Shown: in pieces, positions 4,697 to 58,483 of the stretch
How positions within the stretch are numbered: the first letter of the stretch is position 1
Layout: the number at the start of each line of letters is the position of its first letter
Source: an uncultured bacterium
GTDB taxonomy: Bacteria > Oederibacteriota > JAAXVQ01
Reading direction: 5' to 3'
DNA length: 64,000 bases
Assembly: GCA_964604705.1 (NCBI GenBank)
Contig: CAZSAP010000013.1
Location: 21,388-85,387 of the forward strand
Notes under the pieces: model-generated
What the model was told of the DNA's origin: nothing
The model's database searches: none
Seen by the model: the letters and a program-made list of their open reading frames with translations, nothing else
Program-made: the position numbers and the translations under genes

Positions 4697-4717
4697 GGTC
4701 CACCCCTTTCGCGGATT

Positions 4718-32139: not shown

Positions 32140-32142
32140 CCC

Positions 32143-33411: not shown

Positions 33412-33449
33412 TCCGGTTTCTACAACTCTGAACGCCTGAGGAAAGGTCT

Positions 33450-40036: not shown

Positions 40037-40400
40037 TTTTCCCCCTTAAATAAAAGAATTTTACAGCTACCGGTCTTTATAAGCGTCCGCTGGTCCTTCC
40101 TAATTGTACTTGAGGCAATTCACCCCCAAAGCTTAAGCCTTACGTTCTTAGATAGGGTTTCTCTTACTTGGTCTTATCTTAGCAACGGTATTTTACCGAA
40201 TTTCTTGACCACATTACCAGACATAAAAGCTTTTTCTTTGCATCCCTTCAAGGCTGCAATCGCAATAGGAATTATCATGGGTAATCGCCGTTTAAAGGGT
40301 TGGTGAATGGAGAAATCGATGGCGAACCCGAACTCCCCCCCCCGCCAGCCTGACTCGGGCTGTCTCCCCCTCTTTGGCAAAGAGGGGGCTAGGGGGAGTT

Positions 40401-40442
40401 GAAATAAAAAAGAGGTCTGGCAGGTTTCCCCACCAGACCTCT
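40401..40442 (-). terminator. Rho-independent terminator of the lipoprotein gene, with a second GC-rich hairpin at 40366-40388
   Basis: Hairpin agaggtctgg (40411-40420) and ccagacctct (40433-40442), with a minus-strand U-tract at 40401-40410. An upstream hairpin ccccctcttt-ggca-aagaggggg is also present. Confidence 0.6.
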
Positions 40443-40462
40443 TTGGTTCAACTAAATCAGCC

Positions 40463-41920
40463 TTACTTGCAGGTAAAGTTATGTACAGTGCCCACCGAAG
40501 AGTAAACATCGGCTGTCTCTCCGCCAATGTTGTTGCTGTTGGCATCCAGCATGAGCCCTTCCACTGACTTAAGCCCCGGAAGAACCTTAACATACACCTG
40601 ATACGAGGTGCCGTTTCCTGGATAGAACGTATCCGGCAAATACACGTCTACCGTAGTCGTTCCGTTGAATACCAGTTGTTTGACTGGGATCTGATACGTT
40701 CCCACAAACGCTGCGGGCGTAGTAACAACCACAAACAACTGGAAGTTCGCTGGGGTGATGGTTGTCTCATCCAAGCGTGCTTTGGAATTGGTGGCATCGA
40801 CCACCAACGGAGTTACGTTAAACGGTACAATAAGCTTCCGAGTTCCTTGTGTTACTGTACCCACCGTCACGACGGGTGTGTTTGCACCGGTAGCGGTTCC
40901 TGTCGTAAATTCACGTACCAGATCATCACTGGCTTCTGCAACGCCGTTTACAGCAGTGCCAACAACCCCTTTGGTGCTGCCATCAAAATAACGACCAAAC
41001 AAGGGCGCTTTATCTGTCGAACTGGCTTTATCGGTTCGTGTCCGGTAACCAGTCAAACCACCCTTAATGGTTAGCTTATACTTGGACGTTGCTTCCAAGG
41101 TGTAGAAAAAATCAACCTGACGCGGCCATACTCCAGAACCCGCAATGGAATTGCTAATGGGGGTTACATTGGCTCCAGTTACAGCGTTTGTGATCAAGGT
41201 GTTTTTATTATTGTTGAGAGTCAGGTCATCCACGGCTTTGTTGAAGACAACCGTAATCGTAACATTTGTATAGAATTGTGAAACATTCGCAACATTGCCT
41301 GAAAGCAAGTTACCGCTGCTGCTTCCACCACCTGGCAAGTTCCAATATACATCTATGCTCGAGGCCTGCAACGGTCCAGTTGCGTAAGCGTAGGTTCCCA
41401 CGGGCGCTCCACCTAAAGTAAAGGTAGCCGTATAGTAGTCAAAATCTACGCTTTCAGCAATACCATTGCCATTGCCATCCAACGGACGTCCGGTCAAACT
41501 GCGTACACCGTTGGTGATGTTCAAGCGATATTGTGTATTGCTGGGCCATGACCCAGTCGAACTCACGATCGTTAAGCGGCGACTGTTTCCATCGTAGCTC
41601 AAAGTAACATTGGTGACTTCATTTTCATCTGAGTATGTCACCGTTCCAGTAACATCATAAAGCTGGAACAACTTTACAGTCGTGCTGTTGATGCTGGCCG
41701 GGTCCATGTCCGCGGAAAAATCCACGAACAATTTGTTGTACACACCACCCGGGGTTGTAACCGCGGTTATTGTCGGCAACGAGGTAGAGCCTGCGTTGTT
41801 GGCGCCGATCAGGCTGGTATTGGGGCTTAACGTGCCTTTTTGAGCTGCACACGAGGCCAGGAACACAAGGCTGGCTCCGCACAACCCGAAACAAAGAGCT
41901 TTGGTGAATAAGTTCTTCAT
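40463..41920 (-). CDS. Surface lipoprotein, hypothetical (N/T/S-rich, Ig-like beta-rich)
   Basis: Start at MKNLFTKALCFGLCGASLVFLASC (lipobox LASC). Low-complexity N/T/G-rich beta-strand repeats. Confidence 0.55.
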   Translation of the reverse strand: MKNLFTKALCFGLCGASLVFLASCAAQKGTLSPNTSLIGANNAGSTSLPTITAVTTPGGVYNKLFVDFSADMDPASINSTTVKLFQLYDVTGTVTYSDENEVTNVTLSYDGNSRRLTIVSSTGSWPSNTQYRLNITNGVRSLTGRPLDGNGNGIAESVDFDYYTATFTLGGAPVGTYAYATGPLQASSIDVYWNLPGGGSSSGNLLSGNVANVSQFYTNVTITVVFNKAVDDLTLNNNKNTLITNAVTGANVTPISNSIAGSGVWPRQVDFFYTLEATSKYKLTIKGGLTGYRTRTDKASSTDKAPLFGRYFDGSTKGVVGTAVNGVAEASDDLVREFTTGTATGANTPVVTVGTVTQGTRKLIVPFNVTPLVVDATNSKARLDETTITPANFQLFVVVTTPAAFVGTYQIPVKQLVFNGTTTVDVYLPDTFYPGNGTSYQVYVKVLPGLKSVEGLMLDANSNNIGGETADVYSSVGTVHNFTCK

Positions 41921-41936
41921 GTACGTCTCCTTTTCT

Positions 41937-43694
41937 TTAGAAGTAAACCGAGATGGACAAGCGGTAGTCGCCGAACTTAACCAAATCATAGATAGCCGTC
42001 ATGTCGACCTGAACATCCTTGGTCGGCCACCACGTCGCGCCATGATAGAGCGCATTGTTGTGGTAGGTCTGCAAATAACCAGAATTCACTTCGTCAAAGT
42101 TGTTTTGCGTCGCTGCGGTCTGGGCTGATGACCCATTGGCGTAGTTGGTCTGTGTGATCTGCGGCTGACGCGCCGTCACCTGCGTATCGTTGCTGTATTC
42201 ATGCGTGGTGATGGTATGCATGGCGCCGAAACGGATCGGCAAGTTTTCCATGAGGTTGATCACCAAACCAACCGGAAGCTCGATGTTGTTGTAGATGCTG
42301 CGTGTATTGGCCTCGCTGGTGTAGCCGCCGGTGGTCACCGCTGTGTAGTCGGTGGCCGTGCTGCCCGTGCCACTGACTGTCCGCGTGGACGAGTACGTGT
42401 TGGTGGTCTTCACTTTGCTGATCGTGGAAGTACCGGTGAACTTAATGCCCATGCCGAACTTGGTGTTCTTGGCAACCTGGTACTGCCCGCGCACACCCAA
42501 GGAGTAAGAGCTGTCGTCGGTCTTGCCTTCAAACTTGTCGTTGTCGGCAACGTCGGTCTGATCCACTTGCAAGAGCGTGCCGTTCGGCGTGCGAGTGCGG
42601 ACCATGGTGGTGCGGTCTTGCTTGGCATCGGCAATGGTCGACGGGACCATTTGGAAACCGCCTTCACCGATAAGCACGAAGTTGCTGCTCATGGTGTAAT
42701 CGCCGCGGAGGCCGATGCCCACACCCACGCCCGAACCCGGATAGCCCAAGCCGTTTTCAATGCCGTTTTCCTTGTACTGAGAAACTTTATCCGCAACTGC
42801 GTTCGGATTGTAGTTGATGTTCTGATCAAGCTGGTAGGTGTACTTGTTGGTTCTGCTCCGGAAGATCGGGGTCAGGTTGACCACCGCATCCAGGTTGGAG
42901 ATCATCTTGGCGGCACGTGCGGCCAAGGTGACCTTGGTATCCATGCTACTGCGTTCCAAGGACCCGGTGGTGCCTTGGGTAAACTCAAAGGTCTTGGCAC
43001 CGGTGATCAAGTTGGTCTCGGTCCAGCGCAGGCTCTGGTCAAACGACGGACCGATCAAAAGTCCGGCGTACTGTGCGACCAAAGCATTCACACCCAAATA
43101 ACCTGGGTTGTAGGTGTACTTGGTGCCGCTGCCCTGCACGCGCAAGGCCGCACCAAAGTCCAGACCACCCAGATCACCCAAGCCATAGGCCACATAGACA
43201 TCGGTGTCGTTGTAGGAGTAGGTTCTTTTTTCACGTCCGTACTTCTCAGTCTTGGCATCGTAGATGCCATCGGTGTTGGAATCACGGTAGTTGACCAACG
43301 CGGATTCAATAAAGCCATTTCCGCTTTGCGACTCACCACCGGCATAGCCGTTGTACGCTGTTTCAAAACTATCCGAACCGTACCAGTCAAAGATGAACCC
43401 TGCACGGCCTACGCCCATGGCCGAAACCTGCGTACCCAGCAAATAGCTGCTGGTGCCGGGGTTGCCATTCACTTGCTCATCGCCCCCGGTCACATGGTTG
43501 GATAACTGGGCCCACAAGGTGTTTCTCTGCAGGCTGGGGAGATACGCCGGGCTGTATTTGAAGAAATCATAGTTGTCTTCAAAGATGCCTGCGGTTGAGT
43601 CTGATGTAAACGAAGTATCCTTTGTTGCCGAAGCCAATCCGGACATAGAGAGAAGCATTGTCATTGCCAAAACGCCACTTAAGAGCTTTTTCAC
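41937..43694 (-). CDS. Hypothetical outer-membrane beta-barrel protein (porin-like)
   Basis: Signal peptide MKKLLSGVLAMTMLLSMSGLASA. Alternating amphipathic strands. C-terminal ...RLSISVYF ending in Phe. Confidence 0.5.
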   Translation of the reverse strand: MKKLLSGVLAMTMLLSMSGLASATKDTSFTSDSTAGIFEDNYDFFKYSPAYLPSLQRNTLWAQLSNHVTGGDEQVNGNPGTSSYLLGTQVSAMGVGRAGFIFDWYGSDSFETAYNGYAGGESQSGNGFIESALVNYRDSNTDGIYDAKTEKYGREKRTYSYNDTDVYVAYGLGDLGGLDFGAALRVQGSGTKYTYNPGYLGVNALVAQYAGLLIGPSFDQSLRWTETNLITGAKTFEFTQGTTGSLERSSMDTKVTLAARAAKMISNLDAVVNLTPIFRSRTNKYTYQLDQNINYNPNAVADKVSQYKENGIENGLGYPGSGVGVGIGLRGDYTMSSNFVLIGEGGFQMVPSTIADAKQDRTTMVRTRTPNGTLLQVDQTDVADNDKFEGKTDDSSYSLGVRGQYQVAKNTKFGMGIKFTGTSTISKVKTTNTYSSTRTVSGTGSTATDYTAVTTGGYTSEANTRSIYNNIELPVGLVINLMENLPIRFGAMHTITTHEYSNDTQVTARQPQITQTNYANGSSAQTAATQNNFDEVNSGYLQTYHNNALYHGATWWPTKDVQVDMTAIYDLVKFGDYRLSISVYF

Positions 43695-44060
43695 GTCTCG
43701 TCCACCTTTCTTAAATTTTTAATGGTCTTGAGGAAAAACGTAGAACTGCCTAAAAAGCCGAGTGTTCCCCCCTTTCAATCACCGGTTTTTTGAAGAGACT
43801 ATAGATATACGATGAAACATGTTAAGGATCAAGATTTTTTTACTTTCTTTGTGTTAGATTTTTTGTGCACTTTGCCCACTCCAATATTTATCACAATTGA
43901 GTGAGTCTATCGATTTTCGGTAGCTTTAAGAAAAACTTTAACTTCAAAGTTAAATAAATGGCTTTTCCACCTGAACCACATCTGAGCAACAGAGCCACTC
44001 TCCAGCAACCCTTACGCGGTCGAGCATACCGTCTTTCCTGCTGGAACATTAAGCCTTAAA

Positions 44061-44450
44061 TTACGGTGTTTTGTCTCTATCCAATTTGGCCTCAGCTTCA
44101 GCCATAGACCCGGCTTGATCCAGTTCAGCGGACGTATACGCCTCTTTGCCCACGCGGTTGAGTTGCAGTTGGGCCGTAACGTGCGATTGGTTCACCACGC
44201 GGATAACCCGGCGTACGCTTCGGTCCTGAATGGCTTTTTGCGCACGCTGAATATGCGCCAATCCAGCCTGGGACGTAGGTTTGAATTCCGAAATATCATT
44301 GATCACATCAAATCCCGGCTTTAGCTTTTTCAACTCGTGAATCACTTGATCCGCGGCTTTTTCCATCATGTCATCGGTGAGAAATCCCTTCAAACGGATG
44401 TACAAACGGTTTTTATTCACATCACTGTGGGATTCGTAAAAACTTTCCAT
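44061..44450 (-). CDS. Hypothetical small protein, possibly STAS-like
   Basis: Start at MESFYES (ATG 44450) with an AGGAG Shine-Dalgarno. The fold assignment is tentative. Confidence 0.4.
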   Translation of the reverse strand: MESFYESHSDVNKNRLYIRLKGFLTDDMMEKAADQVIHELKKLKPGFDVINDISEFKPTSQAGLAHIQRAQKAIQDRSVRRVIRVVNQSHVTAQLQLNRVGKEAYTSAELDQAGSMAEAEAKLDRDKTP

Positions 44451-44536
44451 AAGGCGACTCCTTCTCAACTTCCTGAGAATCATTTCTGACCTTAAGTATC
44501 GGAAAATCGCTTTTAAAATTAAGTTTTAAACCTATT

Positions 44537-46009
44537 TTAAGCTTCCGGCGACAGGTGAAAGACGTGGCTCTGCCAGGCGTCCAGGGCCACATACAGCCCA
44601 TTGCGCATGACATCCAAGGTCGGATACGTGTACGCCTGCTGGTTCAACTGATCGGAAAAGGTCCAGGCGCTGTTGCCCACGGTGGGCAAGGGCAAACTTA
44701 TGTATCCTTGCGCCCAAACCGGCCCAAAATTTATGACCACCAACCAAGGGCCGCTCTCGGTATCCCAGGTCAAAGCCACAAAAGGGTTATGCGCGGCCTG
44801 CAAAACCTGAGTGTGGCACAACCGCCACTTATCCAAAACCCCACCCTCTCGTGTCGGCAAAAGGGTTGTCAACCGTTGATACCACGCAGCCAAGATTGTA
44901 TCCGTCGGTTCGTCAGGACCCCGACGCAACTGCACCGGGAGTTTGATACGCGCGCCTTGGGCTTGCCCGAGAAAAAGCATGCGTGCGCCAGGCACACACT
45001 GGCACAACAACGCGGCGGCATGTGCCTGCCCTGCGGCTAAGACGGACGCCGCCCGGGGCTCGTCATGATTTTCCAAGAATCTCACCAGATGCGTTTGATA
45101 GCTGAGTGCTGCCGCCAAATGCACTCGCAAGCCTTCGGCATCGGCCTGCACCACACGTTCGTAAAAGCGCTTATCGTAGCAAAAATTAAACCCCTGCTGC
45201 TGCAGTTCCCACTCCTTGTCCCAATACACCTCGGCCATAAACCAAAACCTCGGATGCTGTTGGCGAACCGCAGTGATCACTTCGTCCCAAAACTCCTGCG
45301 GCAAGGGGCTTCCAGCGCGTGCGCCCCAGGTCCGGTCAAACACTTCGTTCAACAGCAGCATGGCCATGTCGCAGCGTACGCCGTCGCATTGCTCGGCCAA
45401 TTCGCACAGGGTCGCAATTGCCTGAGTGCGATAGTCCGCAGACCAGGCGTTCAATTGCGCGGTGTCGGTCCAGGCTGGAAAATACGGATCACGCCCATGG
45501 GCCAGCACGCGCTCCCCGGCGGGAAAAAAAGCCCCGCGCTGGCAACTCTCTCCCGGATCGCCCTGGATAAACATATCCGGCGCATCCCAGGTCCATACAT
45601 GATCCCGCGCCACATGATTGGGCACATAGTCCAGGATCAGCCGACAGCCATGGTGGGCCAACTGCGCCCGCACCCGCTGCAAACCCGCATCCCCACCCAG
45701 GCGCGGCTCCACGGTGTACGCGTGCACGGCATACGGCGAGCCTACTACGTCGGCCTCCTCTACGTCCGGCACGGCGCGGGCATAGGCTTCGCGCAATTCG
45801 GGAATTTCCAGCGCACACTGCCGAGACGCCGAGCTGCGCTCCCAAACCCCCATAAGCCAAACCGCATCCGCCCCCTGGGCCATCTCGGCCACAACCTCCT
45901 CGGGGACATTGGCCAAAGTAATCTCCTGCCCGTAAAGCACGCTGAGGTGACTCAGCCACGGCCAGGTGGGTATTTCAAAAATACGCGGTTGTGGGGGCCA
46001 AGCCAGCAT
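44537..46009 (-). CDS. Glycoside hydrolase family 13 (alpha-amylase superfamily) enzyme
   Basis: GH13 catalytic-region-like motifs (LILDYVPNHVARDH, GVRCDMAM, FLENHDEPRA). 490 aa. Confidence 0.7.
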   Translation of the reverse strand: MLAWPPQPRIFEIPTWPWLSHLSVLYGQEITLANVPEEVVAEMAQGADAVWLMGVWERSSASRQCALEIPELREAYARAVPDVEEADVVGSPYAVHAYTVEPRLGGDAGLQRVRAQLAHHGCRLILDYVPNHVARDHVWTWDAPDMFIQGDPGESCQRGAFFPAGERVLAHGRDPYFPAWTDTAQLNAWSADYRTQAIATLCELAEQCDGVRCDMAMLLLNEVFDRTWGARAGSPLPQEFWDEVITAVRQQHPRFWFMAEVYWDKEWELQQQGFNFCYDKRFYERVVQADAEGLRVHLAAALSYQTHLVRFLENHDEPRAASVLAAGQAHAAALLCQCVPGARMLFLGQAQGARIKLPVQLRRGPDEPTDTILAAWYQRLTTLLPTREGGVLDKWRLCHTQVLQAAHNPFVALTWDTESGPWLVVINFGPVWAQGYISLPLPTVGNSAWTFSDQLNQQAYTYPTLDVMRNGLYVALDAWQSHVFHLSPEA

Positions 46010-46039
46010 GCGTGTCTCCTTGGATGCGCTCAGATTTTG

Positions 46040-47020
46040 TCAAAAGATTTTCCAACCGAACAATTTAACCCGCAAGGTCTTTTGGGGACATTTTTCCACA
46101 CAGCGAAAACAATGAATGCATTCCGGCTGGTCCACGTAGCGGTCTGACTTGTCGTGATACACCCGCGTGGATTCCACGGGGCACACATTGGCGCAGACCC
46201 CGCAGCGGGCGCAGGCTTCCCATGTTTTCTCCTTGGTCACAAGCTTCCCGCGGTTAAACAACGAGATTAAAATCCCGTTCGGACAAAAGCTGCACCAAAT
46301 GCGGTTTACGAAAAACGAGGCCAGAAAAAAGAACGTGAACAACGTACTCACAATGAACAGCACCAGGAAAATGGGGCGCCACAAGTCGGCAAAAATCGGA
46401 TACCCGGTCATGAGCGAGTACACAGTGCGGGCCGGACAGATCTGGCAGCCGACCAAATACAGTCCATCCCGCACGGCCCAAGGCAGGGATTGAATCGAGG
46501 CCACCCAGGAAAAAATCCCCACCAGGACCATAAGCGCCAGGCCGGCGTTGCGCAACTGCACCCGCTGATGCTCGTTCACTTTAATTTCCGAAACATGCAG
46601 GCTTTTGCGTAAATGTCCCAACAGATCCTGGATAAACCCCATCGGACACACCCAACCGCAGGTAAGACGCCCCAACAACACGGCCAGCACAACAAATACC
46701 ACCAAATAGGGGATCCATATGCGTATCGGGTCCATCCACGAGATGGATTCCTGAATAAAATGAAACGTACATCCCCGAAACGCACCGAGGCCGCGGGCAT
46801 ACCGGCACGTTTTAAACGGCAAATACATGTTAAACGTTTGCTTTTTCGGCGGCGCACTCTTGGTGGCCGACATGGGCTTAAACTCAGCCGGGGTCTCGGC
46901 CACCACAAAAATAGAGGGGAGCGGGATTTTCTTACCCTGAAAAATCGTGGCCCCGCCATAAACAATCAGCACCAGAAAAATGATTTGTATAATTGTGCGG
47001 AGCACGGAGATGCGTTTCAT
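46040..47020 (-). CDS. NapH/MauN-type membrane polyferredoxin, copy 1
   Basis: TM region with CGWVCPMGF and CSFCPNGIL (CX3CP motifs). A C-terminal pair of 4Fe-4S motifs CARCGVCANVCP and CIHCFRCVEKCP. Start assigned at MKRISVLRT (47020); the track ORF start overlaps the activase by ~105 bp. Confidence 0.75.
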   Translation of the reverse strand: MKRISVLRTIIQIIFLVLIVYGGATIFQGKKIPLPSIFVVAETPAEFKPMSATKSAPPKKQTFNMYLPFKTCRYARGLGAFRGCTFHFIQESISWMDPIRIWIPYLVVFVVLAVLLGRLTCGWVCPMGFIQDLLGHLRKSLHVSEIKVNEHQRVQLRNAGLALMVLVGIFSWVASIQSLPWAVRDGLYLVGCQICPARTVYSLMTGYPIFADLWRPIFLVLFIVSTLFTFFFLASFFVNRIWCSFCPNGILISLFNRGKLVTKEKTWEACARCGVCANVCPVESTRVYHDKSDRYVDQPECIHCFRCVEKCPQKTLRVKLFGWKIF

Positions 47021-47028
47021 AAAGGGAG

Positions 47029-47808
47029 TTATCCCAACCGCTGGGCTTCCAACGCCGATCCCAACGAATTCACAAACTGCGGTATCTCGGGAATGTACAG
47101 CTTCACACCCAGCTTGCTCTCCATGGCCGCGCACAAGCCAATGTTCTTGGCTCCGCCGCCGTTGAACGAGACAATCTCGCGCAAGCCCAGCTTTTTGGCC
47201 ATGGCAAACATGCGCTCGGCTATGGAATGATGAATCCCGGCCACAATGTCTTCTTTTTTCACATCTTGCGCCAAGAGCGATATGACCTCACTCTCGGCAA
47301 AGACCGTGCACGTGGCGTTGATGGTAATCGAGGTCTGCGATTTAAGCGAGAGCTCGCCCAAATCCTCCAAGCGCACTTCCAAGGCATGCGCAATCACTTC
47401 TAAAAAACGCCCGGTTCCGGCTGCGCATTTATCGTTCATGACAAAGTCGGTGATCTCACCGTTTTCATCCAAGGTGATCACCTTGATGTCCTGCCCACCC
47501 AAGTCAATGATGGTCCGCACCTGCCCGCGTGGACTGCCTAAGAAACTCGTGCCTTTGGCACAGGCTGAAATCTCGGTAATGGTCTTGTCTCCGAACTCCA
47601 CGACCCGACGGCCGTAGCCCGTGGAAACCATACGCTCTACCGCCGCGCGCTCAATCCCCGCCTTTTGCAACGCCAGCTCCAGCACCGTATTGGCGCTGTT
47701 CTTGGGACGGCTCCCGGTGGGGACCACCGCCGTGGCTAAAATATCCTTATCGCTTAAAATCAAGGCCTTGGTGGCCACCGAACCAATATCGACACCGGCT
47801 GTAATCAT
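47029..47808 (-). CDS. BadF/BadG/BcrA/BcrD-type ATPase: activase of 2-hydroxyacyl-CoA dehydratase / double-cubane-cluster protein (HgdC/DCCP-R-like)
   Basis: 259 aa with an ASKHA fold. N-terminal GVDIGSVATKALI and the Cys pair region DKCAAGTGRFLE, typical of a [4Fe-4S]-bridging activase. Confidence 0.85.
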   Translation of the reverse strand: MITAGVDIGSVATKALILSDKDILATAVVPTGSRPKNSANTVLELALQKAGIERAAVERMVSTGYGRRVVEFGDKTITEISACAKGTSFLGSPRGQVRTIIDLGGQDIKVITLDENGEITDFVMNDKCAAGTGRFLEVIAHALEVRLEDLGELSLKSQTSITINATCTVFAESEVISLLAQDVKKEDIVAGIHHSIAERMFAMAKKLGLREIVSFNGGGAKNIGLCAAMESKLGVKLYIPEIPQFVNSLGSALEAQRLG

Positions 47809-49064
47809 CGCATCATCTCCAAGAAGGCTTCCACCCGCGTACGCAACTGTTCGACATCCTCTTGCCCGTAGTCCGTATGCAGGGTCAGCATGGGTATTTT
47901 TTTATCCTTCAACACTCGGTTTACCAAATCGCGCTCCATATCAAACAACTGGCAGAGCCGCAGATCGTGATAGATCACACCGTTGACTTGAAAATCCTCG
48001 GACATTTTAAGCAGCTTGTCCACCCGGTCGTACGAGCTGGCAAAGCACGGGCAGGTGGTGGGAAACAAGTACCGCGACGCCAAGGCTTCCACCATGCCGT
48101 CGACGGTCCACTCGTCGGGCTCGGGGTAATCCCAGAGACGCTGGTGCCCGGAACACATTTCGTCGGCCACCACCGAAGCGCCCAGTTCCTCAATCAAGTT
48201 GAGGATCTTAAAATTCGGCCAGATCACGGGCGCGCCGGTAATCAACAGCTTCTTAGTGGTCTCAGTATGTGAGCCAGAAACCGCGGCGGTCATTTCCTTG
48301 AGCAACACCTCGGCCTGCGCCACCCACGTGGGAACATCGGCATAGAAGCTGGCCTGGATCATCATCAGCCAATCGGAATGCGAGATCACGCCGGGATGTT
48401 TACGGCGGAGCTCGTACAACGCGCGGTACAGTTTGGAGCGTTTCTGAAAAAGTTCGATCGCTTCCTTTAGTTTCTTCCGTTCCAGCTTCTTTCCGGTCCA
48501 GGCCTCCAACTTGCCCTTGAGCCGCTTGATTTCCTGGAGCCAAAAGGGTTTGACCGTCTCGTAGTCCTTGGTCGACGGTAGGTTGAGCAACCAGACCGGT
48601 TTGTAATCGGCCAGGTATTCACCCAACTTGGTCTTGGCATCGCAGGTCGTGGGTAAAATGATCAGATCGCATTCATCAAAGTATCCGCCGCCCACGATGG
48701 CCGAACCTAAGGTGGACTTAACCAAGGGACAAATGTCACGCGGCAGCACCTCTTCCGAAGGAGCTATTGTCTCGGAGGTCCCGCTGCAGAGCCGCACCGG
48801 GATAATGTCCATGGCCCAGAGCAATTCCTCGGGTACAAAATAGCAGTAGGTGCCGGCGATTCTTTTCTCGGTGGCGCGCAGGGCCTGCAAGCGCTCATCG
48901 GTGGTGAACATGCGTTCAAACGCACTCAACGCCGCCATGCGGTTCGGTTGTTTCTGCAAGCGCTGCGCCAATTCCGTTGAGGCATCGCGCAGGGCCTGCT
49001 GAATTTTTTCCGAAGGGCGCCGGACCGGCGTCCGGGGGTACCGTTTCTCAAAATCTGTGTGCAT
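47805..49064 (-). CDS. 2-hydroxyacyl-CoA dehydratase / BcrC-BadD family (HGD-D, PF06050) single-subunit protein, double-cubane-cluster-protein-like
   Basis: Conserved Cys-containing segments ICPLVKS, TTCDAKTK, DEMCSG and TTCPCF. About 420 aa from ATG at 49064. Overlaps the activase start by 4 bp. Confidence 0.7.
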   Translation of the reverse strand: MHTDFEKRYPRTPVRRPSEKIQQALRDASTELAQRLQKQPNRMAALSAFERMFTTDERLQALRATEKRIAGTYCYFVPEELLWAMDIIPVRLCSGTSETIAPSEEVLPRDICPLVKSTLGSAIVGGGYFDECDLIILPTTCDAKTKLGEYLADYKPVWLLNLPSTKDYETVKPFWLQEIKRLKGKLEAWTGKKLERKKLKEAIELFQKRSKLYRALYELRRKHPGVISHSDWLMMIQASFYADVPTWVAQAEVLLKEMTAAVSGSHTETTKKLLITGAPVIWPNFKILNLIEELGASVVADEMCSGHQRLWDYPEPDEWTVDGMVEALASRYLFPTTCPCFASSYDRVDKLLKMSEDFQVNGVIYHDLRLCQLFDMERDLVNRVLKDKKIPMLTLHTDYGQEDVEQLRTRVEAFLEMMR

Positions 49065-49075
49065 GCGCAAACTCC

Positions 49076-50080
49076 TTATGATCGAAAAATCGGAATGCCG
49101 AAAAACTTTACGGTCAGGCATTTCTTCTCTGGGCACAAATCCACACACCGGTAGCACTGAATGCACTGGGCATGATCCACGACCCGGCGTTTTTTTTCCG
49201 CGTACACACTCACCGACTCCATGGGACAGGCATCCGCGCAAATGGCGCATTTGGTGCACAGCACCGCATCCTTCTCCTTGGTGAGCCCGCCCCCGCGGTT
49301 GAAAAACGAGAGAATCACCCCGCCCGGACAGAGCTTGCACCAACTACGCTTAAACACGGCACTGGACACGTACAGCAGGGTAAAAACCATGAGGAGCACA
49401 AACAGAGTCACCAACAAGGTGGTGGACGCCCCAGGAAACTGCAGATTGATCATGATTGGAAAACCGGTGATGAGCGGTGTGATCAACTTGGATGGACACA
49501 CCTGGCAGGTCGCAAGATAGAGCGGTTTTTTTATGCTCCAGGCCACGGCCGACCAAGAAATCGCCCACGCACTCACCAAGAGCAAGGTGGTCAACACATA
49601 GCCGCCGGCCTTAAGTGTTTCCAACATCCAAGCCGGCAGCTTAATCCGCGCCCAACCCAGCCACCGCCGAACCTCGGTGAACATTTCAGAGATAAAGCCG
49701 ATCGGGCACAACCAACCGCACCAGAACCGGGCCAACAACACCATAAGCGCGATTAAAAGCGCCAGACTCGGCAAGATCACTTTCAAGGGCGGGCGCCAGG
49801 TCAACGTGTCCGAAAAAAAGTACATGAGGCAGCCGCGGAAGGTGCCCGTCGTTCCCGCAAACCGGCAACTGCGGCCGGGTAAAAACGTCTGAAACGGCTG
49901 GGTCCAGGTAGGATTGGCGTAAAGCAATTCGGTCATCTTCTGGTTCTTGCCGTCGAGTGAATACCACTTGATCTCCTGCGGCTTCAAATCCAAGAGGGTC
50001 GCTCCATAAAAAAGAAACAGGAACGAGAGCACCTGCACCACTCGCCGCGACCATGTAATCTTATGCAGAACCATACGCAC
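49076..50080 (-). CDS. NapH/MauN-type membrane polyferredoxin, copy 2
   Basis: TM region with CGWLCPIGF and CKLCPGGVI. C-terminal CTKCAICADACP and CIQCYRCVDLCP. Paralogue of the 46040-47020 ORF. Confidence 0.75.
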   Translation of the reverse strand: MRMVLHKITWSRRVVQVLSFLFLFYGATLLDLKPQEIKWYSLDGKNQKMTELLYANPTWTQPFQTFLPGRSCRFAGTTGTFRGCLMYFFSDTLTWRPPLKVILPSLALLIALMVLLARFWCGWLCPIGFISEMFTEVRRWLGWARIKLPAWMLETLKAGGYVLTTLLLVSAWAISWSAVAWSIKKPLYLATCQVCPSKLITPLITGFPIMINLQFPGASTTLLVTLFVLLMVFTLLYVSSAVFKRSWCKLCPGGVILSFFNRGGGLTKEKDAVLCTKCAICADACPMESVSVYAEKKRRVVDHAQCIQCYRCVDLCPEKKCLTVKFFGIPIFRS

Positions 50081-50132
50081 GATGCCCCTTCATAGAATAC
50101 AGCTTACGCTTACCTTTTTAAAACACGCATCC

Positions 50133-50284
50133 GGTCGAATGGGGTCGGGTGTCCCGTGCCGCGGATGCTGGGTCCCGCAATGTGATTTCACACAGCTCAC
50201 CGCCCGATCGCACACGTTGGTTGCGAACCGTCCTTTCGCCCCATGCCCATCAGAAGCAAACGGGATACCCGATCCCATTCGACC
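50133..50284. repeat. Imperfect 23-bp inverted repeat pair (21/23 matches) about 105 bp apart. A MITE-like element or a long-range stem.
   Basis: ggtcgaatggggtcgggtgtccc (50133-50155) against gggatacccgatcccattcgacc (50262-50284). The palindrome tgtgatttcacaca (50181-50194) sits inside. Confidence 0.4.
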
Positions 50285-50456
50285 GAGTTCCACTATGTTC
50301 ACCGCTTCCGCATCGACCACCGTCGCCATAAAAACAGCCCCACAAACAACACCACAATCCCCACATACACATATTCGCCGGCATAATCCCACAGGGTGGG
50401 ATTATCCACAACTTCAATGGTGATCATGCCAGGAGAAGATTCTGCGCTCTCGGGGT

Positions 50457-51392
50457 TCATTTCTTCTTCACATCCAGGTTCATTTCTTGAACCGCAAACA
50501 CATTGCGGCTGGACGTGCGCCCATCCAAAGCGATTTTGTACGTGCCCGGCGCCACGCCTTTTTTCACAACCAGCTCCACCTCAAACTCCGCCACCTGCCC
50601 GGGCGAGAGTTTCTTGACACTGGCCGGCTTCACCACCACGTCAAACGCATCGCTCTTCGCGGTTAGGACAATGTTGTTCAATTCATTGAAAACATTATTC
50701 TTCAGATGCACTTCAAACTTACCTTTTTGCACGATCGAGGCAGGCACACGCGAAAGGCTCAAGCCTAAATTCTGGGCCGCCGCTCCGCCACCCGGTCCTT
50801 CCAAGTTCCCTTCGTAAATCGTGGCTCCGCGTGAGGTGACTTTAAAATCCATGGGAAATTTCCCGGACTTCCAATCGTCTTTGAGCTTGAGCTTAACCGT
50901 GTAATACTCACGCTCACCCGCGACCAAGCGGCGCAAAGACGCCGGATCCACCTCGGTATCAAACGCCGGGCTGACGGCCTGCAGCTTTACATCAAACAGA
51001 TCCCGGGGAGATTTGTTCACGATGTATGTACGGAACTCGCCCTTACGTCCAATAATCTTCAGCTGACTGGTCTCAGGGATGAGCACAATGTTGTCCGGGC
51101 TGGTCTCATCGGCGCCGGCCTGCGGGCCTGTGTCTCCGGGCAAGCGCGCACCCGTACTCATGGCATTGGGGGCTGCCGCCGAGGGAGAAGATCCCGGTCC
51201 GCCGGGTTCCCCAGGCGCAGGCGGGGGGGGCGGTGGCGCCACTGTGTCCGGTGCTCCCGGGGACCCGGGCGCGGCACCGACACTTCCAGGGTTGGGGCGC
51301 CACGGATCGTCGCAGGCATGCCCGAAACACACGCTGGTGCACGCGGCACTCAATACACACATCACACCCAAACCCATCATTGTCTTTTTCAT
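50457..51392 (-). CDS. Hypothetical secreted protein with a Pro-rich linker
   Basis: Signal peptide. A PPPPPPAPGEPGGPGSSP linker, then a beta-rich C-terminal domain. Confidence 0.5.
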   Translation of the reverse strand: MKKTMMGLGVMCVLSAACTSVCFGHACDDPWRPNPGSVGAAPGSPGAPDTVAPPPPPPAPGEPGGPGSSPSAAAPNAMSTGARLPGDTGPQAGADETSPDNIVLIPETSQLKIIGRKGEFRTYIVNKSPRDLFDVKLQAVSPAFDTEVDPASLRRLVAGEREYYTVKLKLKDDWKSGKFPMDFKVTSRGATIYEGNLEGPGGGAAAQNLGLSLSRVPASIVQKGKFEVHLKNNVFNELNNIVLTAKSDAFDVVVKPASVKKLSPGQVAEFEVELVVKKGVAPGTYKIALDGRTSSRNVFAVQEMNLDVKKK

Positions 51393-51445
51393 AAGCTCAC
51401 CTTTCTGGTCGTGTGTAAAAAATCATAAACCGCAGCCGTATGCAG

Positions 51446-52522
51446 CTAGGGTTTCTTCGGTTCCAAGTATTTCACTTTCGCCGCCGTGTACTCGGCATAG
51501 CTTACATGCGGCAAGCCCGCGCCATCTAAAACCAACGAGGCATACGCCCCCACATCCCCAGTTGCATCCAGCACACTCACCTTCCACGTCGTTCCTTGTG
51601 CTTGGGCATACTTCAGATGTTTTTTTCCGTGATCGTAGTATACCATGTGCGCCCGTCCTTGCGCATCCAGGCGCAAACGCACATAACGCCCCACATCCCC
51701 ATCTTTATCCACCGTGGTTTTGTTCCACTGCTTGCCGTCCCACACCGCGTATTTTAAGGCGGCGGTACCGGCATCGTAGTAGGCTATGCGCGGGAATCCC
51801 TGAGCATCCAATGCCAACGACGTGAACATCCCCAGGGTCTTTTCCGTATCCACGGTCTGAATATCCCAACCCGTCCCGTTCCAAGCCGCGTACTTCAAGG
51901 CATGCTTGCCCCAATCACTGTAGGAAATATGCGGACGATCCTGCGCATCCAGCGCCAGTGAGGTAAACATACCCACGAAATCCTTGAAATCCACGCGTTC
52001 GGTTTTCCAGGTCTTGCCTTCGCGGCGCGCATATTTCAAATCGTAGTTGGTCCAGTCAAAGTAACTGATGCACGGCACGCCCTTGGAGTCCAACGCCAGG
52101 GATGCATACGTCCCTTCGTATCCGGGTGCATCCACCAGCTCGGTCCGCCATTTTCCGTTTTCGAGTTCAGCATATTTCAAGTCTTTGTTCTTCCAATCAA
52201 AATACGCTACGCACGGCTGCGCTTGCGCGTCCAAGACCATGCTTACATACGTGCCAAAATTGCCACCCTGGTCCACGTTCTGCACCGACCACTTCCCCCC
52301 CTGGCGATGCGCCAACTTGAGCGCATAATCCCGCCAGTCGCAATACGCCACATAGGGTTCTCCCTGGGGATCCAGCGCCAGCGCCGTCTCCTGCCCCTTG
52401 ACCAACGCATCCGGGTCGGCCAACTCCACCTGCCACTGAGGGGCACGTGCACAGCCGACGATCAGCATCAGTCCAATCACCATCCAACCATACTTCAACG
52501 CATGTTTGTTCGCCTTCCGCAT
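51446..52522 (-). CDS. Lipoprotein made of about seven tandem ~42-aa beta-propeller-type repeats
   Basis: Lipobox LIVGC. The repeat ...G.Y.SLALD..G.P.ISY.D..N..LKYA...G..W..E.VD recurs and also appears in the N-terminus of the 53567-55726 protein. Confidence 0.55.
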   Translation of the reverse strand: MRKANKHALKYGWMVIGLMLIVGCARAPQWQVELADPDALVKGQETALALDPQGEPYVAYCDWRDYALKLAHRQGGKWSVQNVDQGGNFGTYVSMVLDAQAQPCVAYFDWKNKDLKYAELENGKWRTELVDAPGYEGTYASLALDSKGVPCISYFDWTNYDLKYARREGKTWKTERVDFKDFVGMFTSLALDAQDRPHISYSDWGKHALKYAAWNGTGWDIQTVDTEKTLGMFTSLALDAQGFPRIAYYDAGTAALKYAVWDGKQWNKTTVDKDGDVGRYVRLRLDAQGRAHMVYYDHGKKHLKYAQAQGTTWKVSVLDATGDVGAYASLVLDGAGLPHVSYAEYTAAKVKYLEPKKP

Positions 52523-52587
52523 AACGCCTCCACCTTTAAAAGCTTTTCCGCGAACCGCTATTTCGTTCTTCTGGGTATGAGACGTAG

Positions 52588-53565
52588 CTAAAACCCCACA
52601 CTCAACGTCACGAGATGGTTCGCCCCAAACGTCCCCATGCTGGCAAACGCATAATCCAGCCGCACGCTGCCCAAGGCGGCCCCGCCGCCGGCGGTCAATC
52701 CCGCCAGATCGTAGCCTGCCTTGTAACCTAAGCGGGCAAAGAGCATATCCCTAAACCCATACTCCACACCCGTGTGAAATTTGAAATCCTGATCCAACGG
52801 CTTTACGACTTCGGCACTGCACGCCAACCCATGCTGCTTAACCCAGAGCCAACGGTACGCAGCTCCGGCTTGCAGCGTGGTGGGCAGCAAATCCCCCTCT
52901 TGATCGTACTTGAGTCGCGGCCCCAAATTTTCAACCGCGAGGCCGATGTGCAAATCACGCCACACCTTGTACGCCACGCCACCGTCCAAGGCCACGGTCA
53001 AACCCGAATACGCTTCGGCCAAGCGCGAGCTCAGCACTTTGACATTGATACCGGCGCAATTCTCCCCGTACATGCGCATACTCCCGGAAAGCGTGAGCAC
53101 ATAGTCTTGAAGCGCCTTGACCGAATGCTCGCTTCCATCCCCCAAGGTATAATCAAGTTGCCCGGCATCAAAGTACGCAACACTGACCCCCCAGGCCGAA
53201 GCCGGCGAGGCCGGCATGCCAAACGCCAGGGCCGTATACGCGGAATCATCCAAAGTCTTGTAGTACGTTGCGCTCACCTGCGGTCGACTCAAGCGCTGCA
53301 AGCCGGCCGGGTTAAAATAAACAGCATCCAGATCCGCGGCCAACGCCGTGTAAGCTTCACCCAGCCCCAGTGCCCGTGCGCTGGCCGGGTACGTCAACAC
53401 CCGCGCACCGCTGACCAACCCGGCGTGGCACAGGGCAGGAAGCATGCCACTTCCCATCAATCCCAACAGGATCCAAACCTCAATACAACCTCTCAACCCC
53501 CGGCCCAAAGAACGCCTATGGGAAGCACGCGAAGTCAACTGTGTGTGTTGGTTACAATCGTTCAT
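52588..53565 (-). CDS. PorV/PorQ/PorP-like outer-membrane beta-barrel (short form, 325 aa)
   Basis: Family motif ALGLGEAYTALAADLDAVYFNPAGLQRLS. Ends ...TLSVGF. Lies immediately downstream of two CTD-bearing cargo genes. Confidence 0.6.
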   Translation of the reverse strand: MNDCNQHTQLTSRASHRRSLGRGLRGCIEVWILLGLMGSGMLPALCHAGLVSGARVLTYPASARALGLGEAYTALAADLDAVYFNPAGLQRLSRPQVSATYYKTLDDSAYTALAFGMPASPASAWGVSVAYFDAGQLDYTLGDGSEHSVKALQDYVLTLSGSMRMYGENCAGINVKVLSSRLAEAYSGLTVALDGGVAYKVWRDLHIGLAVENLGPRLKYDQEGDLLPTTLQAGAAYRWLWVKQHGLACSAEVVKPLDQDFKFHTGVEYGFRDMLFARLGYKAGYDLAGLTAGGGAALGSVRLDYAFASMGTFGANHLVTLSVGF

Positions 53566-53566
53566 G

Positions 53567-55726
53567 TCATTTCACCACGCATATCTTCTTCCGGGTATGC
53601 ACGCCCGGAAGCTGAATGTCGACGAAGTAGATCCCGCTGGCCACGGTCTGGTTGTCCTTATTCACACCCGTCCAGATTTCCTGATGCACCCCGGCTTCAC
53701 GTCGTCCGTCCACCAACGCCTTCACCATCACGCCGTCGAGGCTGTAAAGCTTGATGACCACGTTCCCGGGTTGCGGCAGCGTGTACCAGATGCTGGCATG
53801 CTCGCCCAGCAGCGGCTTGAACAATCCGCCGATGATTTTCACTTCTTGTGGAAATACAGACCCCTTCACCGCGATGAAATCCTCGGCACTCAATCCCTTA
53901 GCCAAGGCCTGCGCAGTATATATTTTTCTCGCAGGTTCAAACACCCAACCGGCTGCTTGCGGCTCAAGCGTGATTGGTTCATAGGGCAATCCCGTCAAAA
54001 CATATTGTCCGTTGCTTCCGGTAATAGCTGCAACCGAGATGGAATTACCCCGTGCTTGTACGGTGATATTGGGAACGGCCACTCCTTGCGAATTTCGGAC
54101 GGTCCCTTGGGCTGTATAGACTACGCCCGGGAGCATGGCGGCAAATCCCTGGCTGTCTTGACTGGCACCCAACGAAGCGTACGAACGTGTGGCAGGCGTG
54201 AACGAATACCCAGTTAGCGAGGGCGTGATGGTATAGTTGCCGGGTGATAGATTCACAAACTCGTAATAACCTGTCGTATCCGTAGTATAGGTTCCTTGCG
54301 AACCACCGGACAAGGTTACAATCACTTGCTTGCCCACTTGATTTCCAGCTGCATCCGTAATGTAGCCGCGAATAAAATAACCGCTGCCTGGAATAATGGT
54401 GAAATCCTGGCTGGTCTGATTCTGACCCAAAGGTGCATAGGTTCGTTGAGTAGGTGAAAAAGACCAGCCCGCCAGAACTGGAATCACGCTTACATTCCCA
54501 GCCGGTACTTTTTCGAAAACATAGCTCCCATCGCTTTTGGTCACGGTGTTGGCATGAATCGCCCCGCTGGTTAAGAACATGTACACGCCTGCCTTGGGTA
54601 CACTCGCACCATCACGAACCACACCGCTGATGGTGTAGACACCCTCGATCCAACGCGCAAACTTTAAATCCTTATTGGTTACATCGTAGTAGGCTATAGC
54701 TGGAGATCCCGAGGAATCTAATTTTAAAGAAGTAGTAAAGCCCACAGCCCCCGATGCATCCACCACGCTCGGAATCCAAGCGCCGGAGCTGTTGGTCGCG
54801 TATTTAAGATGCCAACGGGTGAAGTCCAAGTAACTGATGTGTGCAGCGGTACCCTGCGTAGCAATGGACGTGTCGCCGCCAACGGAATAATCATTATCCA
54901 CCTTTTGTTTAGTCCAGGAACTGCCATTGAAGTAAAAATATTGGAGAAAACGGTAATTTACATAATCGGCACCACTCGTGCTTATTGTATTACTGCATGC
55001 ACTAATGTGCGGATTTCCGCTTGTGTCCAGTGCCAAAGAAAGAAATGCGCCTTCATTGTTTCCTTGGCCTGTCGGCTTATTAGCCGTCCAACTTCCCGCT
55101 GGCCCATTATAGTAAGATACTTCTTTATCGTTGTTGTACGCAGCCACATGCGGCACACCGCCAGTATCAAGCGCCAGAGAATGTTCCTGAGGGTCGTTGC
55201 CTAGGGGCAGCGAGCTCACGCCCCAAGACGTTCCGTTAAAGTAACCATATCTCAAACTTCCAGAACTAACATAGGTCACATGCGGACGCTGCGAGGCATC
55301 CAACTTTAGAGATGGGGAGGGGATCTCCGAAGACATGCTGGTGCCAACCAGTGTAGGGCTGCTCCAGGCGCTCCCGGTCCACTCAGTATACCGCAGCTCT
55401 GAGGCACTGGTGCGAAAAGCAATGCAGGGATAGTTACTGCTGTTACGGGCAATGGACGTGCCATTACCCCCGGCAGTTGCACCTACCGTCTGCACACTCC
55501 AGGCCGAACCGTTATGGTAGGCATATTTTAACCGATTGTTTGTATAATCATAGTAGCTGATCATAGGATGATTTCCACTGTCCAGTGCTAGCGACGAGTA
55601 CCATCCCACATCGCCGGTCGTGTCCACGGTCTGCACGTCCCAGACTGCAAAACTGTTTACTGCCAAAATAGCCAAAGCTGAAAACAGCAACCCACAAAAC
55701 AGTTTGGATCTCTTCCTGGTTCTCAT
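53567..55726 (-). CDS. Secreted protein with N-terminal propeller repeats, carboxypeptidase-regulatory-like domains and a T9SS-type CTD
   Basis: Signal peptide. The N-terminal repeats are shared with the lipoprotein at 51446. G.V.D..G CarbReg-like units. C-terminal ...VVIKLYSLDGVMVKAL...SGIYFVDIQLPG...KKICVVK. Confidence 0.6.
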   Translation of the reverse strand: MRTRKRSKLFCGLLFSALAILAVNSFAVWDVQTVDTTGDVGWYSSLALDSGNHPMISYYDYTNNRLKYAYHNGSAWSVQTVGATAGGNGTSIARNSSNYPCIAFRTSASELRYTEWTGSAWSSPTLVGTSMSSEIPSPSLKLDASQRPHVTYVSSGSLRYGYFNGTSWGVSSLPLGNDPQEHSLALDTGGVPHVAAYNNDKEVSYYNGPAGSWTANKPTGQGNNEGAFLSLALDTSGNPHISACSNTISTSGADYVNYRFLQYFYFNGSSWTKQKVDNDYSVGGDTSIATQGTAAHISYLDFTRWHLKYATNSSGAWIPSVVDASGAVGFTTSLKLDSSGSPAIAYYDVTNKDLKFARWIEGVYTISGVVRDGASVPKAGVYMFLTSGAIHANTVTKSDGSYVFEKVPAGNVSVIPVLAGWSFSPTQRTYAPLGQNQTSQDFTIIPGSGYFIRGYITDAAGNQVGKQVIVTLSGGSQGTYTTDTTGYYEFVNLSPGNYTITPSLTGYSFTPATRSYASLGASQDSQGFAAMLPGVVYTAQGTVRNSQGVAVPNITVQARGNSISVAAITGSNGQYVLTGLPYEPITLEPQAAGWVFEPARKIYTAQALAKGLSAEDFIAVKGSVFPQEVKIIGGLFKPLLGEHASIWYTLPQPGNVVIKLYSLDGVMVKALVDGRREAGVHQEIWTGVNKDNQTVASGIYFVDIQLPGVHTRKKICVVK

Positions 55727-55775
55727 ACGTAGTTCCTCCCAATGCGAGGGGGTTTCCTAACTTCACTTACCAATC

Positions 55776-58448: not shown

Positions 58449-58483
58449 CCGTGACAATCTCTGCATGTCCTCTCCTCCACCCA

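Follow-up and report, generated by a model that had tools for sequence, protein, structure and literature searches.

In this work, we analyzed a four-gene cassette at 46040-50080 of a 64-kb stretch of contig CAZSAP010000013.1, the whole of which is referred to as the window. The cassette encodes a double-cubane cluster protein (DCCP), its ATPase activase, and two membrane polyferredoxins, here called copies 1 and 2, and all four genes lie co-directionally on the minus strand (Table 1). They were found at the coordinates reported in an earlier note on this DNA, and the tight packing described there was confirmed as well: polyferredoxin copy 2 is separated from the DCCP gene by 11 nucleotides (nt) and the activase gene from polyferredoxin copy 1 by 8 nt, while the activase gene overlaps the DCCP stop codon by 4 nt (47805-47808). 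The catalytic gene is single, with no second HGD-D gene in the 64 kb. A GH13-like gene follows copy 1 after 30 nt. Its membership of the unit, which the note had left open, was rejected, for none of 87 related loci carries a homologue.

Table 1. Features of the cassette and of the DNA around it. Handles beginning with L denote related loci in other genomes; aa, amino acids; ORF, open reading frame.
Feature	Coordinates	Strand	Length, matches and remarks
Polyferredoxin copy 2	49076-50080	-	334 aa; PF12801 Fer4_5 (E 4.6e-12) and 2x[4Fe-4S] domain
DCCP	47805-49064	-	419 aa; PF06050 HGD-D (E 2.5e-102), end to end
ATPase activase ("archerase," DCCP-R type)	47029-47808	-	259 aa; PF01869 (E 2.8e-57)
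Polyferredoxin copy 1	46040-47020	-	326 aa; PF12801 (E 3.7e-12) and two 4Fe-4S motifs
Non-coding gap	50081-50298		218 nt
Single-transmembrane-segment peptide (probable accessory)	50299-50460	-	53 aa; homologous small ORFs in L001 (E 9e-29) and L002 (E 1.4e-5)
Secreted two-domain beta-sandwich protein (probable accessory)	50457-51392	-	311 aa; PF10633 NPCBM_assoc
Repeat (propeller-like) protein, lipoprotein-like N terminus	51446-52522	-	358 aa; homologues in L001 (E 4e-191) and L002 (E 1e-102)
PorV-like outer-membrane beta-barrel	52588-53565	-	325 aa; PF19572 PorV, 32.7 bits (cut-off 27)
Surface protein	53567-55726	-	719 aa; CarboxypepD_reg PF13620 (E 1.6e-24), FlgD_ig C terminus PF13860
GH13-like gene	44537-46009	-	PF00128 partial match, 47 bits; adjoins cassette
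Unnamed protein	44061-44483	-	140 aa; 53 nt downstream of GH13-like gene; no Pfam or NCBIfam match
Large secreted protein	41937-43694	-	585 aa; no Pfam match
Large secreted protein	40463-41989	-	Big_5 domain
TonB-dependent receptor	37880-40036	-	
Plus-strand island	30814-34751	+	MgtE_N+CBS protein, Nramp transporter, B12-binding radical SAM enzyme
Very large surface protein	12513-15566	-	
Very large surface protein	25158-27404	-	
Very large surface protein	55776-58613	-	

Identity of the DCCP and its activase

The gene identities that the earlier note assigned to the reductase and its activase proved right. The DCCP scored 351.8 bits against NCBIfam NF040772, "double-cubane-cluster-containing anaerobic reductase" (cut-off 350). 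Among solved structures, it matched 7YYL and 6ENO from Carboxydothermus hydrogenoformans best (E 7e-70), with 36.7% identity to the DCCP of that species (DCCP_Ch), and its closest named relative comes from candidate division FCPU426 (60% identity). A count of the ligand Cys residues, for which a double cubane requires six, yielded the full six plus a seventh (C74, C93, C112, C141, C304, C338, and C371), all of them invariant across an alignment of 29 sequences. They are separated by 18, 18, 28, 162, 33, and 32 residues, which is within 1-4 of the published motif, CX19CX18-19CX29CX166-170CX32-34CX32C (PMC7317905). For the activase, a score of 266 bits was obtained with TIGR00241, the model of acyl-coenzyme A (CoA) dehydratase activases (cut-off 125), and its putative cluster Cys residues, C128 and C167, are in the positions expected from C115/C152 of DCCP-R (PMC9351452).

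The window DCCP and DCCP_Ch thus share the fold family, the length, and all seven Cys residues, and each is accompanied by an adjacent homodimer-type ATPase with two cluster Cys residues. Two-subunit enzymes of the HgdAB/HadBC and benzoyl-CoA reductase (BcrBC) kinds are far more remote. The DCCP scored 120.6 bits with the HadC model (cut-off 700), 25.5 with HadB (750), 100.6 with BzdN (453.8), and 71.4 with BcrC (421), and far below the cut-off with BzdO too; the BzdQ model gave 177 bits against a cut-off of 380, and the window holds one catalytic and one ATPase gene. The window neighbors scanned included neither a CoA-transferase nor an acyl-CoA dehydrogenase, and no aromatic-degradation gene occurs at the cassette locus. 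The note's exclusion of a classical dehydratase or benzoyl-CoA reductase locus therefore holds.

Conservation of the polyferredoxin-DCCP-activase trio

To define how widely the arrangement occurs, one genome per species (GTDB) was scanned with the DCCP profile, and the ORFs of the 80 best loci were searched with the window proteins. Immediately upstream of DCCP, on the same strand, 30 of the 80 loci have a homologous polyferredoxin gene (29, plus locus L030, where the ORF caller had masked it), and 4 others have one at a distance of up to 3.5 kb; 41 have none, and a contig end cuts the remaining 5. The gap between the two genes is mostly -4 to +17 nt, and 29 of the 34 linked loci have the activase gene no more than 400 nt after DCCP. 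The linked bacteria include candidate division FCPU426, Endomicrobia, Omnitrophica, Alpha- and Gammaproteobacteria, several orders of Desulfobacterota, and Spirochaetes, and the linked archaea include Thermoplasmata, Bathyarchaeia, Thermoproteota, and the DPANN lineages Nanoarchaeia and Pacearchaeota. Precomputed Pfam annotations revealed the same gene order in metagenomic relatives from Firestonebacteria, Stahlbacteria, Woesearchaeota, and others, whose DCCPs are 79, 54, 48, 45, 42, and 37% identical to that of the window. Synteny of DCCP with the polyferredoxin is therefore found in many phyla, and the lack of synteny elsewhere that would have refuted the note is clearly not what was observed.

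In a neighbor-joining tree, all 41 unlinked genomes form one clade (Firmicutes, Syntrophobacterales, and a few archaea), and every other deep DCCP branch is linked to a polyferredoxin. The unlinked clade contains DCCP_Ch (6ENO), the only characterized DCCP, which is a soluble protein, and none of its 30 nearest relatives in the set has a polyferredoxin partner. The six ligand columns are kept in 38/38 linked and 40/40 classic DCCP sequences. Elsewhere the two groups differ: linked DCCPs, the window protein included, carry R91 in place of Gly, P138 in place of Glu, W247 in place of Phe, D301 in place of Glu, and P339 in place of Ala (window numbering). Arg91 is invariant in the linked proteins, whereas the classic clade has an invariant Gly at this site, which is two residues away from the seventh Cys (residue 93). 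The latter is found in 40/40 classic sequences but in 27/38 linked ones, having been lost in the other 11.

The association was also examined from the opposite direction by scanning metagenomes with the polyferredoxin profile. Among the 13 evaluable loci with the closest relatives, DCCP is directly downstream in 11, nearby in 1, and absent in 1, and distant Fer4_5 proteins without the CxxCP pair never have an adjacent DCCP. Furthermore, DCCP and polyferredoxin diverged together (r = 0.85 over 27 loci; reached in 0 of 2000 Mantel permutations), a link at least as strong as that between DCCP and its activase (r = 0.69). These data bear out the conserved genomic link to membrane polyferredoxins that the earlier note had raised as a potential novelty. 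We found no publication describing it, in a literature search that was not exhaustive, and the full texts covered, an incomplete set of journals, contained nothing on a membrane partner of DCCP.

One part of the proposed arrangement did not generalize, namely, the bracketing of the reductase and activase by two polyferredoxins. Copy 2, the upstream one, is the orthologue of the conserved partner, and the directly upstream homologues in L001, L002, L008, and L172 match it best. A second copy also occurs in L002 (Firestonebacteria), L088 (Woesearchaeota), and L089, the second copy of L002 being the orthologue of copy 1. Since second copies are confined to a few lineages and take varying positions, the bracket is a lineage-specific feature, and what is conserved is the core of polyferredoxin, DCCP, and activase. 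Taken together, we consider it very likely that these three genes make up a conserved cassette, inherited together in many phyla of bacteria and archaea, and that it marks DCCP lineages distinct from the characterized soluble enzyme of the Firmicutes type.

Properties of the membrane polyferredoxins

Copies 1 and 2 are paralogues of 35% identity, and where two copies are present, they probably form a heteromer. Both possess one CX3CP motif (CGW[VL]CP at position 121), two CX2CP motifs (C192 and C243 or C248), a loop pair (C72/C84), and two ferredoxin motifs, giving 16 conserved Cys residues in total, each of which is 87-100% conserved among 39 DCCP-linked polyferredoxins. The two C-terminal 4Fe-4S motifs described in the earlier note were thus recovered, but the "paired CX3CP" motifs were not, there being one CX3CP and two CX2CP.

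The assignment to the NapH type was not upheld either. The two polyferredoxins scored 79.4 and 57.2 bits with the NapH/MauN model TIGR02163 (cut-off 213) and 77 and 55.3 bits with the NapH equivalog NF007013 (cut-off 234). Escherichia coli YccM, a homologue of CcoG (PMC7558416), is closer to the window polyferredoxin (75.9 bits, E 6e-20, 27% identity over two thirds of the length) than is E. coli NapH (49.3 bits, 26% identity). Judged by sequence, the polyferredoxin is a member of a separate Cys-rich Fer4_5 subfamily and not a NapH. A further set of Fer4_5 proteins of ~390-625 aa (L105-L108, L111, L113-L115, and L118-L120) has CGWxCP and two CxxCP motifs and no adjacent DCCP; these longer proteins form a sister subfamily with a presumably different partner.

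The topology of the two proteins, whose prediction the note had proposed, was then assessed. Hydropathy indicated four transmembrane segments and a positively charged N terminus, and the AlphaFold2 model of copy 1 shows four long membrane helices (predicted local distance difference test score, pLDDT, 73.7) in the corresponding places. In the predicted topology, the ferredoxin domain must be cytoplasmic; this would place C72/C84 and C192xxC195P in two outward loops and CGWxCP and C243xxC246P at the cytoplasmic face of the membrane. The polyferredoxin is therefore predicted to carry redox-type Cys sites on both membrane faces. The four outward-loop Cys residues are conserved in 87-95% of the 39 sequences, and this quartet is present neither in E. 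coli NapH nor in YccM. Two of them reside in a first outer loop of 70 residues, which in archaeal homologues is longer by 100-300 residues and contains no known domain. A Foldseek search of the model against the PDB returned no match with E < 1, so that the membrane part has no solved homologue, and a PDB sequence search yielded generic ferredoxin domains only.

Comparison with the better-known members of the superfamily placed these features in context. NapH, of NapGH, resembles the window proteins in its four transmembrane helices, a CxxxCP motif after the second helix, a Cys pair after the fourth, and a C-terminal 2x[4Fe-4S] domain; unlike them, it lacks the long first outer loop with its two conserved Cys residues and the outer quartet as a whole, and its second motif is CX3CP rather than CX2CP. 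Neither napA, napG, napB, nor napC nor a mau context was found among the neighbors in the window or in the related loci. CcoG and YccM are likewise membrane Fer4_5 proteins with two [4Fe-4S] clusters, and CcoG reduces a metal ion at membrane sites (PMC7558416); the neighbors of the window cassette also have a metal-handling flavor. On the other hand, the window has no cco genes (ccoGHIS), its polyferredoxins lack the C-terminal immunoglobulin-like domain, and neither the loop Cys pair nor a CxxCP motif at position 192 is found in YccM. The physiological electron donor of CcoG is unknown (PMC7558416). The likely electron source of the window polyferredoxins would be an ATP-driven reductase. In the NosR and PceC conduits, a Fer4_5 membrane protein connects electrons from the cytoplasm or membrane with a redox partner outside the cytoplasm (PMC8238504). 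These proteins differ in carrying or pairing with a flavinylated domain that binds flavin mononucleotide, together with ApbE, none of which was seen at the cassette, and the NosR model gave 33 bits with the window polyferredoxin (cut-off 1000).

Genes associated with the cassette

Upstream of the cassette, a block of genes (50299-55726) is syntenic with it in L001, L002, L172, and L173 and partly in L008 (Table 1). The first is an ORF for a small peptide with a single transmembrane segment, which the earlier note had missed; it overlaps the stop codon of the gene upstream of it by 4 nt, its homologues in L001 and L002 likewise lie shortly before the polyferredoxin gene, and in L172, a 54-aa gene is called at its position. 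That upstream gene encodes the secreted beta-sandwich protein, whose homologues adjoin the cassette in L001, L002, L008, L089, L172, and L173; the two polyferredoxin genes of Woesearchaeota L088 have an NPCBM_assoc gene between them. Immediately after the signal peptide, the beta-sandwich protein contains the sequence GHACDDPWRP, invariant in 7 homologues and followed by a poly-proline linker. Because of this location, the mature protein probably starts with His, with Cys two residues on, and the resulting N terminus, HACDDPWRP, looks like a His/Cys metal-binding site. Characterized DUF4198 proteins bind Ni or Zn via an N-terminal His (PMC12537917, PMC12663993). Genes of 373 aa in L172 and 352 aa in L173 take the position of the repeat protein, and the PorV-like and 719-aa surface proteins are encoded at matching positions in L001, L002, L172, and L173. 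The block from 50457 to 55726 may be a trans-envelope extension of the cassette system, or its synteny may be no more than an inherited order of genes.

Between the small ORF and the first polyferredoxin gene lies a gap of 218 nt that is non-coding, has no Rfam match, and contains no consensus promoter; it may hold the promoter of the cassette or a regulatory element. A promoter and terminator scan of 43500-56000 gave counts at or below shuffle expectation, with none inside the cassette.

Other lineages have other accessory genes. A DsbD_2 (PF13386) membrane protein is encoded near the cassette in 14/37 linked loci. At 11 proteobacterial and spirochaete loci, a TonB-dependent receptor is followed by a membrane-anchored protein of ~360 aa with weak similarity to DUF4198; the N-terminal His is not present in the proteobacterial proteins, and their DUF4198 scores are weak. 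A Wtp-like oxyanion ATP-binding cassette (ABC) importer occurs in one clade, and beta-sandwich proteins of the CARDB/NPCBM_assoc kind recur. Extended clusters contain a BzdQ-like second ATPase (346 bits) and a 95-aa ferredoxin. Since DsbD_2, the small ferredoxin, and the second activase are all absent from the window, its cassette is a reduced form of the extended cluster.

A favored mechanism for electron transfer

Of the explanations considered, we favor a membrane-coupled double-cubane reductase system, to which we assign a probability of roughly 45%. In such a system, reduced soluble ferredoxin, which the larger clusters encode for themselves, would charge the activase, and ATP hydrolysis would move an electron onto the [8Fe-9S] cluster of DCCP. 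The latter would act as a low-potential electron store or relay, comparable to BzdN in benzoyl-CoA reductase, and would hand electrons to the polyferredoxin. The polyferredoxin, in turn, would move them to its membrane-embedded and outward Cys sites, functioning as a membrane reductase like CcoG or as a trans-membrane wire like NosR. The acceptor, probably some metal or metalloid, would be a hard-to-reduce species handled by the envelope proteins encoded alongside. The part of this explanation that concerns the direction of flow, outward to an acceptor in the envelope, is put forward more tentatively than the whole.

Several observations favor outward flow. First, characterized Fer4_5 proteins deliver electrons to the membrane or periplasm or reduce a metal there: CcoG reduces Cu(II) via two [4Fe-4S] clusters (PMC7558416), and the NapH-like proteins (NapH, NosR, and PceC) are modular trans-membrane electron conduits (PMC8238504). 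Second, the outer Cys quartet and the envelope and metal-related neighbors are unexplained by a purely cytoplasmic reaction. Third, the double cubane of BzdN is not a substrate site but a cofactor of electron transfer and storage (PMC11971306), and the linked DCCPs have the invariant Arg91 in place of Gly and lack the seventh Cys in 11 of 38 cases. Finally, the extended clusters have a ferredoxin gene next to those of the ATPases, a counterpart of BzdM for BzdPQ, so that the polyferredoxin is available as the output. The resemblance to the BzdNOPQ system with its ferredoxin BzdM has bounds: two ATPase genes and a small ferredoxin are found in the extended cassettes, whereas the window has a single activase gene, no substrate subunit of the BzdO type, and no aromatic-degradation genes.

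A number of points weigh against this explanation. The support for a contact of the polyferredoxin with DCCP or the activase comes from genomic context throughout, and the membership of the window DCCP in NF040772 is borderline. Small-molecule reduction takes place at the cluster of DCCP_Ch itself (PMC7317905), which makes a cytoplasmic substrate plausible for the window protein as well. It would be unusual for an Fe-S center to be assembled on the outer face of a protein that has four transmembrane segments and no twin-arginine translocation (Tat) signal; the outer Cys quartet may instead form disulfides or a metal site. The upstream synteny of the PorV-like and surface proteins could reflect shared ancestry of related phyla. 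The accessory sets differ by lineage (TonB receptor with DUF4198-like protein, Wtp-like ABC importer, or PorV-like with beta-sandwich protein), and this variety indicates no single substrate; the window itself has no DsbD_2 gene. Moreover, no metal-responsive riboswitch was detected: at the gathering threshold, Rfam returned nothing for the whole window and 11 related loci except for a match to domains D1-D4 of a group II intron in L023 (495-610, minus strand, 106.6 bits), which lies near the cassette locus of a single-cell genome. Fur, Zur, and NikR boxes were also searched for upstream of the TonB-receptor genes at nine proteobacterial loci, with none above background. Together with the differing transporters, these negative searches single out no substrate.

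Alternative explanations

The alternative that survives best reverses the flow. Here, electrons would come inward from a low-potential donor other than quinol, the polyferredoxin would be a membrane-anchored ferredoxin for the activase, and DCCP would reduce an imported small substrate, with anchoring merely siting the reductase at the point of entry. The cluster of DCCP_Ch is itself known to reduce acetylene, azide, and hydrazine (PMC7317905, PMC9351452), and the window DCCP equals DCCP_Ch in length and has the full Cys set. Uptake-type neighbors (TonB receptor, DsbD_2, and Wtp-like ABC importer) are common, and Arg91, invariant and close to the cluster, could be an anion-binding residue. However, this explanation leaves the conservation of the four outward-loop Cys residues unaccounted for, no source of low-potential electrons for the membrane protein is encoded, and some clusters provide a separate small ferredoxin by the ATPase genes. 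We regard it as unlikely.

It is improbable that the genes are associated without any direct electron transfer between their products. By this account, the polyferredoxin, DsbD_2, and the envelope proteins would constitute a CcoG-like metal reductase or importer that provides a metal to, or aids cofactor maturation in, the linked DCCP lineage. CcoG is indeed an assembly-linked cupric reductase of the same superfamily (PMC7558416), its homologue YccM is the closest E. coli homologue of the window polyferredoxin, and the neighbors are of a metal-handling type (PMC12537917). Yet the gene order is very tight, with frequent translational coupling, co-divergence with the polyferredoxin is as strong as with the activase, and when DCCP_Ch is produced in E. 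coli, its cluster is assembled although such partners are missing (PMC7317905).

The earlier note had coupled the reductase to the quinone pool through NapH-like subunits. In such a scheme, these subunits would oxidize menaquinol and feed the activase, ATP would then lower the potential, and DCCP would reduce a cytoplasmic substrate. We grade this proposal as decidedly improbable, because the polyferredoxins are not NapH, because of the occurrence of the cassette in DPANN lineages, and because menaquinol would be, by our inference, about 300 mV too positive for the activase cluster. The proposal had its grounds: the polyferredoxins belong with NapH to the Fer4_5 superfamily, NapH is regarded as the quinol-oxidizing subunit of NapGH (PMC8238504), and the activase needs a one-electron donor, for which the polyferredoxin is the sole ferredoxin-like module in minimal three-gene cassettes. 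Activases, however, take ferredoxin, flavodoxin, dithionite, or Ti(III) (PMC7317905). The outward Cys quartet and the envelope neighbors are left unexplained, and the window genes scanned included none for quinones or respiration. The cassette is present in Nanoarchaeia, Pacearchaeota, and Woesearchaeota, and DPANN archaea usually have no quinones.

Lastly, a CoA-ester enzyme of the 2-hydroxyacyl-CoA dehydratase or benzoyl-CoA reductase kind, which would share PF06050 and PF01869 and for which an acyl-CoA dehydrogenase gene after the Stahlbacteria activase could be cited (L005, 9266-10438, a one-off neighbor), is effectively refuted by the model scores far below their cut-offs, the single catalytic gene, the full six-Cys ligand set, and a conserved polyferredoxin adjacency that cannot be due to chance.

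Relation to previous knowledge of DCCPs

DCCPs reportedly entered the literature in 2018 as nitrogenase-like reductases driven by ATP, and papers of 2020, 2022, and 2025 have called both their natural substrate and their partners in the cell unknown (PMC7317905, PMC9351452, PMC11971306). The only published genomic association that we found is with the SAO selenoprotein locus and SelD, reported for DCCPs scoring >400 bits with NF040772 (10.1101/2022.07.06.499078); the window DCCP, at 352 bits, falls below that set. The DCCP and the activase are thus members of known families, and the novelty lies in a membrane-coupled DCCP system with a conserved partner. The pairing is the first consistent clue that one branch of DCCPs works at the cell membrane. 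It spans about half of the sampled DCCP diversity, and it adds a Cys-rich subfamily to the NapH/CcoG/NosR group of membrane iron-sulfur proteins.

The link also makes DCCP function testable. It names a protein to co-express or co-purify with DCCP, points to the membrane and cell envelope as the site of action and to metal and metalloid chemistry for the first substrates to try, and extends to cultured hosts suited to genetic and expression work, such as the delta-proteobacterium strain NaphS2, which carries locus L028, Desulfosarcina, and Desulfobulbus relatives. In its most far-reaching form, the favored mechanism would make the cassette a hitherto unrecognized, ancient, and widespread machine, shared by bacterial phyla and archaea including DPANN, in which ATP drives electrons to very negative potential on the double cubane and the 16-Cys polyferredoxin exports them to an outward-facing thiol or metal site; in that form, it is speculative and somewhat unlikely. 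If true, it would reduce otherwise unreducible metal or metalloid species captured by the envelope proteins, and it would give DCCPs a physiological role for the first time, besides being the first trans-membrane "electron injector" driven by ATP.

Further observations in the window and in related loci

In the Desulfosarcina locus L043, a gene for CbiZ, a corrinoid salvage protein (4251-5408), lies upstream of the cassette. L043 is the sole locus with this neighbor, and no cobalamin riboswitch was found. On the opposite strand after the cassette of L172 (13056-16957), there are genes for a PQQ-type beta-propeller protein, a second protein of the Fer4_5/NosR-like kind, and a fused ABC importer that includes a TOBE domain.

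In the window, a stretch located 2-8 kb downstream of the cassette (37880-43694) encodes two large secreted proteins ahead of a TonB-dependent receptor, and TonB receptors are neighbors of the cassette in Proteobacteria. The island with the MgtE_N+CBS protein, the Nramp transporter, and the radical SAM enzyme is on the plus strand in an otherwise minus-strand window. Three very large surface proteins have FlgD_ig or Por_Secre_tail C termini and contain CarboxypepD_reg, FG-GAP, or NHL repeats, a domain composition that suggests a type IX-like secretion cargo set of this uncultured lineage.

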